Origin: a virus
Taxonomy: Duplodnaviria; Heunggongvirae; Uroviricota; Caudoviricetes
Strand: one strand, 5' to 3'
DNA: 35,636 nt
IMG/VR virus record: IMGVR_UViG_2718218358_000004
Position 1 is the stretch's first letter. Every line of letters begins with the position of its first letter. Under the pieces are notes generated by a model, which saw only the letters and a list, made by a program, of their open reading frames with translations, was not told where the DNA came from and searched no databases. Shown here in pieces: positions 22,119-35,636 of the stretch. Both the position numbers and the translations under genes were made by a program.

Positions 22119-23885
22119 ATGAACACCACACTGACACCCGCAGATCTCGATCCCCGTCGGCAGGCCATGCTGCTGTACTTTCAGGGATACCGCGTAGCCC
22201 GCATTGCTGAAATGCTGGGCGAGAAAGTTGCAACCGTTCACAGCTGGAAAAAACGCGATAAGTGGGGTGACTATGGGCCGCTGGATCAGATGCAGCTCAC
22301 CACCGCCGCACGCTACTGCCAGCTCATTATGAAGGAGCACAAAGAAGGGAAAGATTTCAAAGAGATTGACCTGCTGGCGCGCCAGTCGGAACGCCACGCG
22401 CGGATCGGCAAGTTTAACAATGGCGGCAACGAAGCCGACTTAAACCCTAACGTCGCCAACCGCAACAAAGGCCCACGCCGGCAGCCGGAAAAGAACGTTT
22501 TCACCGATGAACAGATTGAGAAGCTGGAAGAAATTTTCCATTCCTCCATGTTCAACTACCAGCGCCACTGGTGGGAAGCCGGAAAAACCAACCGCATCCG
22601 CAACCTGCTGAAGTCACGCCAGATCGGCGCGACCTTTTACTTTGCCCGTGAAGCCCTGATTGACGCCCTGCTTACCGGACGTAACCAGATTTTCCTTTCC
22701 GCCAGTAAGGCACAGGCCCACGTCTTTAAACAGTACATCATCGACTTCGCCAAAGAAGTGGAGGTGGAGCTGAAAGGCGATCCGATGGTGCTTCCCAACG
22801 GGGCCACTCTTTACTTCCTCGGCACCAATGCCCGCACGGCCCAGAGTTACCACGGCAACCTGTATCTGGATGAATATTTCTGGATACCGAAATTCCAGGA
22901 GCTGCGCAAAGTGGCTTCCGGTATGGCTATTCACAAAAAATGGCGACAAACCTATTTTTCCACGCCATCCAGCCTGACACACAGTGCTTATCCGTTCTGG
23001 TCCGGTGCGCTGTTCAACCGAGGGCGCAATAAAGCCGATAAGGTGGACATCGACCTGTCCCACAGCAATCTGGCCCCCGGCCTGCTGTGCGCAGACGGGC
23101 AATATCGCCAGATAGTCACCGTGGAAGATGCGGTGCGCGGCGGCTGCAACCTGTTCGACCTTGACCAGTTGCGCATGGAGTACAGCCCGGACGAATACCA
23201 GAACCTGCTGATGTGCGAGTTTGTGGACGATCTCGCGTCCGTGTTTCCGCTCAGCGAGCTGCAGGCGTGCATGGTGGACAGTTGGGAAGTCTGGACCGAC
23301 TTTCATGCACTGGCCCTTCGCCCGTTTGGGTGGCGCGAAGTGTGGATCGGTTATGACCCGGCAAAAGGTACGCAGAACGGCGACAGCGCCGGATGCGTGG
23401 TGGTGGCACCGCCAGCCGTGCCGGGCGGTAAGTTCCGTATTCTTGAGCGCCACCAGTGGCGCGGTATGGACTTCCGCGCCCAGGCGGACGCCATCAAAAA
23501 ACTGACCGAACAGTACAACGTGACATATATCGGCATCGACTCGACGGGTGTCGGTCACGGGGTTTATGAGAACGTGAAAGCGTTTTTTCCAGCCGTCCGG
23601 GAGTTTGTCTACAACCCCAACGTTAAAAACGCCCTGGTACTCAAGGCCTACGACATTATCAGCCACCGCCGTCTGGAGTTTGACGCCGGGCACACCGACA
23701 TTGCGCAGTCATTCATGGCAATCCGTCGCGCCACCACCGCCAGCGGCAACCGCCCGACCTATGAAGCCAGCCGCAGCGAAGAAGCCAGCCACGCCGATCT
23801 GGCCTGGGCAACGATGCACGCATTGTTTAACGAACCGCTGCAGGGCGAATCCGCCAATACCAGCAATATTGTGGAGATTTTTTGA
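22119..23885 (+). CDS. P: terminase large (ATPase) subunit P
   Basis: 588-aa ORF divergent from O, P2 gpP size and position. Confidence 0.9.
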   Translation: MNTTLTPADLDPRRQAMLLYFQGYRVARIAEMLGEKVATVHSWKKRDKWGDYGPLDQMQLTTAARYCQLIMKEHKEGKDFKEIDLLARQSERHARIGKFNNGGNEADLNPNVANRNKGPRRQPEKNVFTDEQIEKLEEIFHSSMFNYQRHWWEAGKTNRIRNLLKSRQIGATFYFAREALIDALLTGRNQIFLSASKAQAHVFKQYIIDFAKEVEVELKGDPMVLPNGATLYFLGTNARTAQSYHGNLYLDEYFWIPKFQELRKVASGMAIHKKWRQTYFSTPSSLTHSAYPFWSGALFNRGRNKADKVDIDLSHSNLAPGLLCADGQYRQIVTVEDAVRGGCNLFDLDQLRMEYSPDEYQNLLMCEFVDDLASVFPLSELQACMVDSWEVWTDFHALALRPFGWREVWIGYDPAKGTQNGDSAGCVVVAPPAVPGGKFRILERHQWRGMDFRAQADAIKKLTEQYNVTYIGIDSTGVGHGVYENVKAFFPAVREFVYNPNVKNALVLKAYDIISHRRLEFDAGHTDIAQSFMAIRRATTASGNRPTYEASRSEEASHADLAWATMHALFNEPLQGESANTSNIVEIF

Positions 23886-24910
23886 TGGGAAAGAGTAAGA
23901 AAAACCGCGCTGCGGCGACGAATCAGCTCAAGCATAAAAGCCAGACTTCAGCCGAAGCATTCAGCTTCGGTGATCCCGTTCCTGTACTTGACCGCCGCGA
24001 ACTGCTGGACTATGTGGAATGCGTACAGACAGATCGCTGGTATGAGCCTCCTGTCAGCTTTGACGGACTGGCGCGCACCTTCCGCGCTGCCGTGCATCAC
24101 AGTTCACCAATTGCGGTGAAATGCAACATTCTGACCAGCACCTACATCCCTCACCCGCTGCTCAGCCAGCAGGCTTTTTCGCGTTTTGTACAGGACTATC
24201 TGGTTTTTGGTAACGCCTACCTGGAAAAACGCACGAACCGCTTCGGAGAGGTCATCGCTCTTGAGCCTGCGCTGGCAAAATACACCCGACGCGGGTTAGA
24301 CCTAGATACCTACTGGTTTGTGCAATACGGTATGACAACCCAGCCGTATCAGTTCACGAAAGGCAGCATCTTTCATCTGTTGGAACCGGACATCAACCAG
24401 GAGATCTACGGCCTGCCCGGTTATCTTTCTGCCATTCCGTCAGCTCTGCTCAACGAGTCCGCCACGCTGTTCCGCCGCAAGTATTACATTAACGGCAGTC
24501 ATGCAGGCTTCATCATGTACATGACCGATGCTGCGCAGAACCAGGAGGATGTGAACAACCTCCGCAATGCGATGAAAAGCGCCAAAGGACCAGGTAACTT
24601 CCGCAATCTGTTTATGTACTCGCCTAACGGCAAAAAGGACGGACTTCAGATCATCCCATTGTCAGAAGTCGCGGCGAAGGATGAGTTTCTGAATATCAAA
24701 AATGTCAGCCGCGATGACATGATGGCAGTGCATCGTGTGCCACCGCAAATGATGGGGATTATGCCGAATAATGTTGGGGGGTTTGGGGATGTGGAAAAAG
24801 CGAGTTTAGTGTTTGTGAGGAACGAATTAATACCCTTACAGAAAAGGATGCAGGAATTAAATAAATGGCTTGAAGATAATATATTACAATTCAAACCATA
24901 TAAATTTTAA
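23882..24910 (+). CDS. Q: portal protein Q
   Basis: 342-aa ORF overlapping P stop; last ~30 codons are AT-rich. Confidence 0.9.
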   Translation: MMGKSKKNRAAATNQLKHKSQTSAEAFSFGDPVPVLDRRELLDYVECVQTDRWYEPPVSFDGLARTFRAAVHHSSPIAVKCNILTSTYIPHPLLSQQAFSRFVQDYLVFGNAYLEKRTNRFGEVIALEPALAKYTRRGLDLDTYWFVQYGMTTQPYQFTKGSIFHLLEPDINQEIYGLPGYLSAIPSALLNESATLFRRKYYINGSHAGFIMYMTDAAQNQEDVNNLRNAMKSAKGPGNFRNLFMYSPNGKKDGLQIIPLSEVAAKDEFLNIKNVSRDDMMAVHRVPPQMMGIMPNNVGGFGDVEKASLVFVRNELIPLQKRMQELNKWLEDNILQFKPYKF

Positions 24911-24951: not shown

Positions 24952-26898
<1,947 letters not shown>

Positions 26899-26950
26899 TC
26901 AACTTTCTGTTTTCCAGAAGTATTTTGGCTATTTTCGGTGATAGCGCGCG

Positions 26951-26969
26951 CTCGTATCCCCGCCACGCC
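26951..26969 (-). other. candidate cos (cohesive end) site
   Basis: Minus strand reads GGCGTGGCGGGGATACGAGCGCGCGC; first 13 nt match the P2/186 cohesive-end sequence as I remember it (GGCG[A/T]GGCGGGGA), followed by a GCGCGC element also recalled from P2. Confidence 0.45.
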
Positions 26970-27348
26970 TGCCCGCTTTATGCAGTGGTTTTCATGCACA
27001 TGCATGACATGAGCAAAAGCCCGCCAGTTCTGGCGGATCTGAGCAAAGACGATCCTCAATCGATCATGCGATTTCATGCAGCATAGTCATGCACTGTCAA
27101 GGAAGTGAAAATCCGTATCTGAATGGCCACTTGAAAAACGGATCATACGGGTTTACAAAGATGAATGTTCGCTGTGAACGGGAAGCGGAAGTTAACTTTC
27201 AGATAACATAATCCATATGCACGAGAACCTCTAAAATAGAATGGGACACCTAAGCGGGGTACTTACAACGATTCTTTCCATATTCACAGTTAACACTCTG
27301 TTTGGCGTATTTTTATTCAAATAGCAAACACCAATAAAAGGAGTTTCC

Positions 27349-27684
27349 ATGAACAATATTCCCCCTATACCACAGTTAGGAATTTATGTCTCAAAAATCG
27401 ATCCCACCCTACGTATCACTGTAACCGATGTTGATATTGTTGATGGTGAGGATGATTCTCCTGATGATGAATTGTTTTATTTAGTCCACTGGATCGAGGG
27501 GGAAGATGAAAGTGATATGACAGCAATGGGATTTGAGCTAGACCCAGTAGAGTGGCAGGCTTTCGTTGAATCTGAGCAATTAGTGTTTGAGCGTGATCCG
27601 TACATGGATTCAATCCCCGAAAATTCAAACTTGGCAAAGATTCGGGATTTTCTCATGAAGACTAAACAGAATGATCATTCGTAA
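27349..27684 (+). CDS. hypothetical acidic protein (orphan accessory gene)
   Basis: 111-aa ORF with strong Shine-Dalgarno (aaaggag, 7-nt spacer), AT-rich, about one quarter Asp/Glu; opposite orientation to flanking phage genes. Confidence 0.6.
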   Translation: MNNIPPIPQLGIYVSKIDPTLRITVTDVDIVDGEDDSPDDELFYLVHWIEGEDESDMTAMGFELDPVEWQAFVESEQLVFERDPYMDSIPENSNLAKIRDFLMKTKQNDHS

Positions 27685-27838
27685 GTGTAAGCATCCATCA
27701 GGAAAATGGTTTTGTAAGTGAATCATCAACTTTTAGAGAGTCTCAGACACTCCCACTTCTGCTTCTGACACAAAGCGGACGATCACTTATCAAAATAACC
27801 GCCCACCTTACGCCTTATTTCACTCATTGCCCAAACTA

Positions 27839-27868
27839 GCCCCCATCAGAATGAATCCTCCTGGGGGC
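27839..27868. terminator. possible hairpin between convergent acidic ORF and DinI-like gene
   Basis: 7-bp GC-rich stem gccccca/tgggggc with 16-nt loop; weak U-run. Confidence 0.3.
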
Positions 27869-27876
27869 AACATTTC

Positions 27877-28110
27877 TTAATGCAGCCAGCTGTCGTCCTC
27901 CCACACCTTCTGCATAATTTTCATCACTTGTTTTCTTTCTTCATCCAGTTGCAGTCCGGTTAGTTCCACACCGTTAGAGCTACCTTTGCGAATGCGAATT
28001 ACCGTTTTGGGATACAGGGGGCGCAGATTGCGGTAAAGCTCGGATTCAAGTGCGTCCAAGGTAGACTGGCTAATCTTCTGCTCTTTATCGATCATTATTT
28101 CAATGCGCAT
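27877..28110 (-). CDS. DinI-like protein
   Basis: 77 aa from MRIEIM; pattern matches E. coli DinI (MRIEV...LxxELxxR...WExxDxW) as remembered. Confidence 0.7.
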   Translation of the reverse strand: MRIEIMIDKEQKISQSTLDALESELYRNLRPLYPKTVIRIRKGSSNGVELTGLQLDEERKQVMKIMQKVWEDDSWLH

Positions 28111-28120
28111 AAAAGTCACC

Positions 28121-28309
28121 TCAGCTGATGACATCCATTGAGCGGTTGTATTCGTGGCTTCTGATTTTTGCCATGAGTTCATCAGTCAATTCAGAAACCC
28201 ACTGCAGAGCCAGCCCCTTCTCTTCATCACTACACTCACTAGCCGCTACAAGCTTAAGAAAAAAATCAATGCGCTGGAGCTTCAAAGACTCCAAAAAATA
28301 GTCCTGCAT
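28121..28309 (-). CDS. small protein, first gene of LexA-box operon (possible Tum-like antirepressor N-terminal part)
   Basis: 62-aa ORF directly downstream of a LexA box and 10 nt upstream of the DinI-like gene. Confidence 0.45.
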   Translation of the reverse strand: MQDYFLESLKLQRIDFFLKLVAASECSDEEKGLALQWVSELTDELMAKIRSHEYNRSMDVIS

Positions 28310-28351: not shown

Positions 28352-28367
28352 CTGTTTATATTTACAG
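28352..28367. promoter_or_regulatory. LexA box (SOS operator)
   Basis: CTGTTTATATTTACAG = CTGT-N8-ACAG consensus, 43 nt upstream of the 62-aa ORF start. Confidence 0.65.
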
Positions 28368-34433: not shown

Positions 34434-34619
34434 ATTTTGCTTTTATATCTGCGCCTAATATAACAATGAGCCGCAGGCTAACCGCAAAAGTCACATACTC
34501 ACATAGCAAAAAATAGCTAACTTCATTATGGCTTCAGTGAGATGTATGGTCGCAGGATTTCATACATTGACACTGGTTATACATACAGTAAAAATGCTCT
34601 CTACTGGAGGGCATTTTTT

Positions 34620-35636
34620 ATGGCAGTACGAAAACTCACCACAGGAAAATGGCTTTGCGAATGTTACCCCGCCGGACGTAGTGGACGTCGTGTGCGTAAA
34701 CAATTCGCCACCAAAGGCGAAGCTCTGGCTTTTGAGCGTCACACGATGGAAGAAACCGAAGCAAAGCCCTGGCTGGGCGAATCAGTGGATCGTCGGACAT
34801 TGAAAGACGTGATTGAGCTATGGTTCAAACTACATGGTAAATCTCTGACAGCTGGGCAGCATGTCTATGACAAACTGCTGTTGATGGTTGACGCTCTGGG
34901 CAATCCCCTTGCAACTGATCTAACCTCTAAAATGTTTGCCCACTATCGAGATAAACGCCTGACAGGTGAGATCTACTTCAGCGAGAAATGGAAGAAAGGA
35001 GCAAGCCCGGTCACCATTAACCTGGAGCAAAGCTATCTAAGTAGTGTTTTTAGCGAACTATCCCGCCTGGGCGAATGGTCGTATCCGAACCCACTGGAGA
35101 ACATGCGAAAATTCACCATCGCAGAAAAAGAGATGGCATGGCTTACCCATGAGCAGATTGTTGAACTGCTGGCTGATTGCAAACGTCAGGACCCAATTCT
35201 GGCACTGGTAGTCAAGATATGCCTAAGCACAGGCGCACGCTGGCGAGAAGCAATAAATCTTACCCGCTCGCAAGTGACCAAATACCGAATTACCTTTGTA
35301 AGAACGAAGGGGAAGAAAAACAGAAGCATCCCTATCAGTAAAGAGCTTTACGAAGAGATCATGGCGCTTGATGGGTTCAATTTCTTTACAGACTGCTATT
35401 TTCAATTTTTATCCGTGATGGAAAAAACGTCTATCGTGCTCCCTCGCGGTCAACTGACACACGTTCTGCGCCATACGTTTGCGGCGCACTTCATGATGTC
35501 GGGTGGAAATATCCTTGCTTTGCAAAAAATCCTCGGACATCACGATATAAAAATGACTATGCGCTATGCCCATTTAGCACCCGATCATCTTGAGACGGCT
35601 CTGAGATTCAACCCCCTCGCAACGCTAGAAGTGTGA
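34620..35636 (+). CDS. int: tyrosine integrase (P2 Int family)
   Basis: 338 aa from MAVRKL; C-terminal R...HxxR...Y catalytic pattern (LTHVLRHTFA...MRYAHL); ends at the last base of the window. Confidence 0.85.
   Translation: MAVRKLTTGKWLCECYPAGRSGRRVRKQFATKGEALAFERHTMEETEAKPWLGESVDRRTLKDVIELWFKLHGKSLTAGQHVYDKLLLMVDALGNPLATDLTSKMFAHYRDKRLTGEIYFSEKWKKGASPVTINLEQSYLSSVFSELSRLGEWSYPNPLENMRKFTIAEKEMAWLTHEQIVELLADCKRQDPILALVVKICLSTGARWREAINLTRSQVTKYRITFVRTKGKKNRSIPISKELYEEIMALDGFNFFTDCYFQFLSVMEKTSIVLPRGQLTHVLRHTFAAHFMMSGGNILALQKILGHHDIKMTMRYAHLAPDHLETALRFNPLATLEV

Follow-up and report, generated by a model that had tools for sequence, protein, structure and literature searches.

A small acidic DUF8087 protein encoded beside cos in a 186/P2-like prophage: a portable accessory gene and a candidate inhibitor of nucleic-acid-binding proteins

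What might a small, strongly acidic protein do when its gene sits beside the cos site of a prophage, and to which of the surrounding elements does that gene belong? The question is raised by an open reading frame in a 35,636-nt stretch of Caudoviricetes DNA (IMG/VR record IMGVR_UViG_2718218358_000004), referred to here as the window. The ORF list and the sequence place the coding sequence at 27349-27684 on the plus strand, stop codon included, from an ATG to a TAA, and its product is 111 aa long. A Shine-Dalgarno-like AAAGGAG (27337-27343, plus strand) lies 5 nt 5' of the ATG, and in copies from other genera this position is occupied by AAAGGAA, AAGGAAA or AAAGGCA. The GC content of the ORF is 40.5%, versus 51.2% for the window (GC3, 39%), and both flanking genes, one for a reverse transcriptase (RT; 24952-26892) and one for a DinI-like protein (27877-28182), are on the minus strand. 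The protein contains 15 Asp and 11 Glu residues (23.4%), has a pI of ~4.05 and a net charge of ~-19, that is, -0.17 per residue, and is the most acidic product among the 35 gene-sized ORFs of the window (Asp + Glu fraction of 0.234, compared with 0.155 for the runner-up). The traits for which the first-pass annotation had singled out this ORF, namely a strong ribosome-binding site, low GC content, an orientation opposite to that of its neighbours, a composition of roughly one quarter Asp/Glu and the acidic runs DGEDDSPDDE and EGEDESD, are all borne out by these counts and by inspection of the protein. Judged by the full-length conservation of its product across 61 clusters (clustering at 90% identity) and by pairwise dN/dS values of 0.12-0.22 against the copies from Morganella, Serratia, Proteus, Lonsdalea, Symbiopectobacterium and Buttiauxella and from a second Escherichia coli island, the ORF is a genuine gene under purifying selection.

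The same annotation had taken the product for an orphan, which is incorrect, because the protein falls into both PF26332/DUF8087 and phrog_17127. The match to the phrog_17127 profile (E = 2e-70) joins residues 1-111 to profile positions 1-111 of 111, and PF26332.1 is annotated on all 61 homologue clusters, including the one whose representative, P0001, is 98% identical to the window protein; the PF26332 membership derives from precomputed cluster annotations, the copy of Pfam that was searched being older than this entry and giving no match. Identical copies are named 'DUF8087 domain-containing protein' in RefSeq, and the UniRef name of the protein is Ybl33. By profile coverage, the window protein is a full-length, typical member of DUF8087 (PF26332)/PHROG 17127, a membership that says nothing on mechanism because neither family has an assigned function. 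Nothing relevant to the family came up in the literature under its name, the accession WP_001059831 or the gene name ybl33; Table S5A of Rousset et al. (PMC9122126) gives this accession simply as 'hypothetical'. A profile search against 1.8 billion representatives recovered 35 clusters, most of which comprise proteins of 70-130 aa that span query residues 1-80; the distant relatives include proteins from Pantoea, Nitrosospira and metagenomic sequences, and the short acidic ones reach into Betaproteobacteria. Across the family, P8, G11 and W69 are invariant, and Y13, V25, L45, V46, D56, E63 and L78 nearly so. The distant relatives are acidic too (median Asp + Glu fraction of 0.22), and on this composition acidity is a trait of the family.

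Among 5,426 complete E. coli genomes, 213 (~4%) carry the gene. At an identity of at least 99%, it is present in 131 records, which include derivatives of E. coli B (BL21 and related strains) and EPEC E2348/69, and 80 further E. coli records carry copies at 90-95% identity. One 100% identical copy is found in a record labelled E. coli DH5alpha (NZ_CP026085.1, hit H22); a K-12 derivative would not be expected to carry this prophage, and the record may be mislabelled or the strain may not be K-12. Close relatives are confined to Enterobacterales, and the gene is sporadic, given that a collection with one genome per species yielded five loci. In IMG/VR, we found 35 prophage-type DUF8087 loci; none of 50,697 deposited phage genomes encodes a DUF8087 protein, and a single record among 72,556 plasmids does so.

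The window holds a 186/P2-like prophage adjoining the host sRNA gene rybB. The latter (2700-2778; Rfam, 105 bits) lies just past the tail-gene end of the prophage, and the integrase gene (34542-35636) is at the other end, which places the prophage at a rybB-proximal integration site; in a related prophage of E. coli B, rcdA and ybjJ flank the integrase side. An Rfam scan of the whole window at gathering thresholds returned RybB only, with no match near the DUF8087 ORF. From left to right, the part of the prophage under study comprises the terminase and portal genes (22119-24910), an RT-TOPRIM gene of the retron Ec67 (Eco2) type on the minus strand (24952-26892; NCBIfam retron_Ec67_fus, 4.9e-212; PADLOC RT-Toprim_I-C), the cos region, the DUF8087 gene and the DinI-like gene, with gpA beyond the latter, three genes away from DUF8087. 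The retron ORF, at 646 aa, is over-extended: its counterpart in locus L019 is called at 586 aa, and the true start is probably Met61 (26712), giving the same length; the N-terminal extension overlaps the ncRNA gene, for which the a1/a2 inverted repeats are found at 26750-26762 and 26868-26880, and the ncRNA itself has no match in Rfam.

Several lines of evidence identify the 152-bp element at 26944-27095 (unstranded) as the phage cos site. It contains the cohesive-end sequence GGCGTGGCGGGGATACGAG on the minus strand (26970->26952), which matches the cohesive-end pattern; 44 of 57 positions align with the P2 cos junction (E = 8e-9); and the element is ~90% conserved in 45 P2-like phage records with differing flanks and is present in 1,263 E. 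coli genomes. This identity also agrees with the retron insertion site described by Dodd and Egan (1996), as summarised in PMC6868368, according to which Ec67 and Ec86 replace ~180 bp between cos and a terminator of the packaging genes in a 186-related prophage. Homology between the window and other prophages that encode the identical protein breaks sharply at 26941-26944, ~8-10 bp past the cohesive end. Hence cos has a variable slot on either side, the two being independent, and forms the border between a constant right end with the DUF8087 gene and a variable cargo slot, here filled by the retron. With cos so placed, the DUF8087 gene lies at the far right of the virion map, in the interval from the DinI-like gene to cosR, and the first-pass annotation was right to ascribe it to a right-end hotspot. 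The gene is found in ~10% of the E. coli prophages with the same cos, and the slot is empty in a Yersinia relative and holds two other genes in one from Klebsiella. Between the convergent DUF8087 and DinI-like genes, a GCCCCC...GGGGGC hairpin (27839-27868, unstranded), read from the sequence, is a candidate bidirectional terminator; it did not appear in our terminator scan, its loop being longer than 8 nt. Further on, a perfect LexA-box pattern, CTGTTTATATTTACAG, is located at 28352-28367, upstream of a 62-aa ORF which is followed by the 77-aa DinI-like gene (27877-28309 for the pair, minus strand). This arrangement resembles the p95 SOS operon of 186, the single 146-aa tum of which corresponds to two ORFs here, and the same layout is seen in the Yersinia and Klebsiella relatives.

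The DUF8087 gene is not tied to this prophage type. The segment 27167-27720 (~555 bp), made up of ~183 nt upstream of the ORF, the ORF itself and a 36-nt tail, recurs at 84-86% identity in unrelated chromosomal islands, each time between unrelated flanks. On these alignments, the DUF8087 gene is an optional, horizontally mobile, portable module. Its upstream part (27167-27348, plus strand), where homology to the non-phage islands L002 and L009 starts at 27167 and 27186, travels with the ORF as a putative leader or promoter region; seven contexts align over it, and the last ~110 nt (27241-27345) are the best conserved. The divergence of the leader (JC, 0.19-0.23) is lower than the synonymous divergence of the ORF (0.27-0.41). 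A scan for the sigma-70 consensus upstream of the ORF found none. The top-scoring candidate is TTCACA-19 nt-TATTTT at 27283-27313, whose spacer holds an ACAG-N8-CTGT inverted repeat; its position-weight score was equalled or exceeded in 37% of shuffles, and it is not convincing as a promoter. For the leader as a structured RNA, RNAalifold, run on seven very similar copies, yielded a single compensatory pair and a covariation term of +0.5. At the other end, the shared 3' tail (27685-27720, plus strand) stops where the BLAST alignments with L002, L003 and L009 end, at 27720, which is the right end of the module in the window prophage; among the islands, homology extends over another ~200 bp and reaches a hairpin resembling a terminator, which the window does not have. 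A 71-aa ORF overlapping the 3' end in the islands was taken as non-coding, the differences between its copies being mostly amino-acid changing.

The neighbours of the module differ from one context to the next. In E. coli islands, it adjoins HEPN/DUF4160 genes or a large DEAD-box helicase gene, whereas in Morganella and Providencia it directly follows the mkoC gene of Mokosh, and in the Morganella island an 'Antirestrict' gene of the ArdB/KlcA type is ~4 kb away; leader and ORF align likewise in Serratia, Proteus, Lonsdalea and Symbiopectobacterium. A Klebsiella-type lineage of P2-like prophages has the order cI, tail-anchored membrane protein ('Flk_N'), DUF8087, int, which holds even where the DUF8087 protein is only 57-77% identical to that of the window, and the DUF8087 stop codon overlaps the start of int. 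The membrane protein of this lineage (L003, 7343-7990; L076-L079) is 215 aa long, belongs to Pfam Flk_N and phrog_5825, and shows a weak profile match to the middle part of Ant-type anti-repressors (phrog_245, 7e-7). In Betaproteobacteria, a 94-aa subfamily with a basic N-terminal extension, MGQAKLRGSKEERIAQ, which the enterobacterial proteins lack, is encoded between an integrase gene and a divergent operon for an HTH_17 (AlpA-like) protein and a GPA replicase. Four small integrative elements (L031, L035, L041 and L043) present this context in full, and one short fragment in part. Their order is int, a variable gene in some cases, DUF8087, the divergent HTH_17-GPA operon and defence cargo, the cargo at the far end consisting of TIR-NLR-like, Gabija-like and restriction-modification genes; no conventional repressor gene is visible in the four elements, and small upstream ORFs were dismissed as not conserved. 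Finally, a metagenomic copy adjoins an integrase gene, and a solitary Pantoea copy, a relic, lies at pgsA-uvrC, the site of Klebsiella prophage integration.

AlphaFold2 gave a pLDDT of 79.7 with 34 sequences and of 83.6 with 64 sequences (at least 80 for all five models), with identical topology, and the product is predicted to be a cytoplasmic SH3-like beta-barrel followed by C-terminal helices, with strands at residues 11-15, 22-31, 43-50, 61-64 and 78-82 and helices at 66-76, 84-87 and 94-109. In the model, the two acidic runs occupy neighbouring loops, beta2-beta3 (pLDDT of ~60) and beta3-beta4. The longer run (residues 32-41), modelled with low confidence, forms a loop whose length varies and which several relatives lack, and therefore cannot be the whole functional surface. 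The small size and high carboxylate density (26 Asp + Glu in 111 aa) are those of the DNA-mimic class. Sequence and structure searches, however, revealed no similarity of sequence or fold to Ocr, ArdA or any solved structure: neither the all-helical fold nor the sequence of the Ocr (T7 gp0.3) family is found, and likewise neither the sequence nor the structure of ArdA. These were the searches that the first-pass annotation had proposed for its idea of a DNA mimic or other anti-defence factor; they neither support nor refute an anti-defence role, the homology detected being to an uncharacterised DUF only, and not to an unrelated family of assigned function.

Taking position, mobility and composition together, we tentatively favour, with somewhat less than even confidence in the reading as a whole, a prophage-expressed acidic inhibitor of a nucleic-acid-binding protein that serves in phage-host or phage-phage conflict. 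DUF8087 would be a 'moron', an accessory gene that is transcribed on its own and moves horizontally, at the right end of 186/P2-like prophages, lodged between the LexA-controlled DinI-like operon and cosR, in the slot of P2 tin/old and 186 orf97, and would be expressed from the integrated prophage. Its product would act stoichiometrically, its negative face blocking the basic nucleic-acid-binding surface of another protein, either as a mimic of nucleic acid or as a competitive inhibitor. The conflict would be one of the element with host immunity or with competing phages, and the direction could be counter-defence for the element or exclusion of its rivals. The conserved acidity of the family, its restriction to mobile elements and its repeated adjacency to defence genes are each compatible with a mimic or inhibitor. 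Against it, the searches found neither a convincing sigma-70 promoter nor resemblance to a known mimic. High acidity is also found in antitoxins, immunity proteins and chaperones, and the adjacency to defence genes could come about because the accessory slots of mobile elements gather such genes. A gene expressed by the resident element fits the other evidence at least as well as one that acts early against restriction, in view of the tin/old/orf97 slot, the cI-int operons, the absence from the deposited phage genomes, the single plasmid record and the variable acidic loop. As to the target, we considered RecBCD and judged inhibition of the Gam or gp5.9 type to be unlikely, because some prophages pair DUF8087 with an OLD-family gene; P2 Old is lethal to cells in which RecBCD is compromised (recBC cells).

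The most serious rival, if an unlikely one, is control of the element's own life cycle, whereby DUF8087 would act at the protein level as a brake, titrating one of the element's small basic DNA-binding proteins, such as an excisionase-regulator of the Cox/Apl/AlpA type, the integrase or a GPA-type nickase, and thereby stabilizing integration. It earns this standing because int-proximal and immunity-slot positions recur in distant lineages. In all the betaproteobacterial elements (the four complete contexts and the fragment), the 94-aa subfamily is always encoded between the integrase gene and the HTH_17-GPA operon, a position normally held by an immunity gene, and no other regulator is visible there; in the Klebsiella-type prophages, the gene is fixed between cI and int, overlapping the start of the latter; the metagenomic and Pantoea copies are, respectively, next to an integrase gene and at a Klebsiella prophage site; and in the window gpA is three genes distant. 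Against this, the gene is optional in E. coli prophages with the same cos, the same module resides in unrelated islands beside Mokosh or HEPN genes, far from any int/rep operon, and the enterobacterial proteins are devoid of the basic N-terminal arm of the betaproteobacterial subfamily.

A bolder, and distinctly less probable, extension of such control is that DUF8087 represents a new fold family of nucleic-acid-mimic regulators which originated as the immunity-slot gene of GPA-encoding elements and was later captured at cosR and in defence islands. In the GPA-encoding elements, the ancestral brake would have stood in for a DNA-binding repressor by sequestering the Cox/AlpA-type excisionase or the GPA nickase of the element itself, and the gene would later have become a free-standing module at cosR of the E. 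coli 186-like prophages and in the defence islands.

Among the readings that invoke mimicry, a classical anti-restriction protein of the Ocr/ArdA type, blocking type I (or other) restriction-modification on entry, is the least supported, and we regard it as improbable. Size and charge density (-0.17 per residue) are within the range of Ocr, ArdA, Arn and gp5.9, a single-gene module has spread over phages and islands, and the Morganella island carries its 'Antirestrict' gene at a short distance, all of which would suit such a role. It is demoted because DUF8087 is absent from the deposited phages, is known from one plasmid record and sits in lysogeny operons. The anti-CRISPR pattern is likewise lacking: no HTH 'aca' gene is adjacent to DUF8087 in the loci examined, where the adjacent genes or elements are cos and its cargo, a DinI-like gene, the gene for a 127-aa membrane protein, an integrase gene, mkoC and irmA.

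The 127-aa protein, which has an N-terminal transmembrane segment and belongs to phrog_26730, underlies another alternative that we consider to be no better than a long shot, namely that DUF8087 and a small membrane protein together make up a two-gene unit, in the form of a superinfection-exclusion, abortive-infection or toxin-antitoxin-like pair, of which the window keeps the soluble half only. The phrog_26730 gene follows DUF8087 on its 3' side in the E. coli islands L002 (6538-6921), L034 (9538-9921) and L074 and in the 186-like prophages L068 (6538-6921) to L070, and in the Klebsiella-type phages the tail-anchored membrane protein precedes DUF8087. The two candidate partners are unrelated to each other, however, and most copies, among them those in the window, E. 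coli B, Morganella, Serratia and the betaproteobacterial elements, have neither; the 127-aa protein, which has no match in Pfam or PADLOC, accompanies a subset of the DUF8087 copies only, and is missing from the window. No neighbour is common to all contexts, as would be the mark of a toxin-antitoxin or immunity pair, and purifying selection on DUF8087 persists where the gene is alone.

The distribution of cargo across cos bears on the retron. In 39 loci with the same right end, 22 different cargos were found between cos and the portal gene, including retrons of the Ec67 type, Ec86, an RT-ATPase retron and another RT, as well as GmrSD, an OLD-family ATPase-TOPRIM protein and a nearly empty site of 176 bp. 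The last, from IMG/VR locus L061, has only these 176 bp from cos to the portal gene and looks like the ~180-bp 'empty' site reportedly replaced by retrons. That DUF8087 might be part or a regulator of the adjacent retron, as an accessory protein, self-immunity factor or anti-retron, is extremely unlikely: the gene is divergent from the retron ncRNA gene at a distance of ~470 bp, and an identical protein is encoded next to Ec86 in E. coli B, but cos separates the two, right ends at least 99% identical are paired with differing cargos, with and without retrons, and DUF8087 is present where no retron RT and ncRNA occur, so that the reading is largely refuted by distribution. DUF8087 is not retron-specific because so many cargos alternate across cos, and its gene is independent of the retron.

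If the acidic-face inhibitor that we favour proves to be real, it would add a new fold to the phage-encoded mimic proteins and would provide a function for an uncharacterised gene of E. coli B/BL21(DE3), EPEC E2348/69 and ~4% of complete E. coli genomes. In any case, the position of the gene makes the P2/186 hotspot easier to read: the tin/old slot can accommodate this small gene, while retrons, GmrSD, OLD and further cargos replace one another between cos and the portal gene. Databases list the family, but its members are uncharacterised, and small acidic proteins of this sort are numerous on mobile elements. Testing is easy, since common laboratory strains already contain the single 336-bp ORF, and its genomic setting is clean and well understood.

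Comparison with known systems brings out two sets of likenesses, one of position and one of composition. In P2, the same slot holds the lysogenic-conversion genes tin and old, which are oriented against gene A and have a transcript start of their own close to cos, and in 186 it holds orf97, annotated with 'expression from plasmid blocks 186 infection'. The DUF8087 gene shares with tin and old the strand opposite to gene A and an apparent promoter region of its own, and with these and orf97 its non-essential nature, its variability between related phages and its position between orf91/tum (DinI-like) and cosR; location, strand and dispensability are in this respect those of a tin/old-like gene. 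Tin (253 aa), Old (586 aa; ATPase-TOPRIM) and Orf97 (243 aa), by contrast, are larger, not notably acidic and unrelated in sequence to the DUF8087 protein, and exclusion phenotypes are documented for them. The second set comprises Ocr, ArdA, T4 Arn, T7 gp5.9 and several anti-CRISPRs, which, like DUF8087, are small, strongly negative, borne by mobile elements and horizontally spread; the size and charge density of Ocr, ArdA, Arn and gp5.9 bracket those of DUF8087. The latter differs from all of these in its predicted SH3-like barrel with helices, which resembles none of them, and from acidic DNA mimics in its absence from deposited phage genomes and near-absence from plasmids. A parallel in concept, for the mechanism proposed both for the favoured inhibitor and for the life-cycle regulator, is offered by the Myxococcus antirepressor CarS, which has an SH3-like fold and mimics operator DNA, and which illustrates how a small acidic barrel of the SH3 type can serve as a DNA mimic directed against a DNA-binding regulator.
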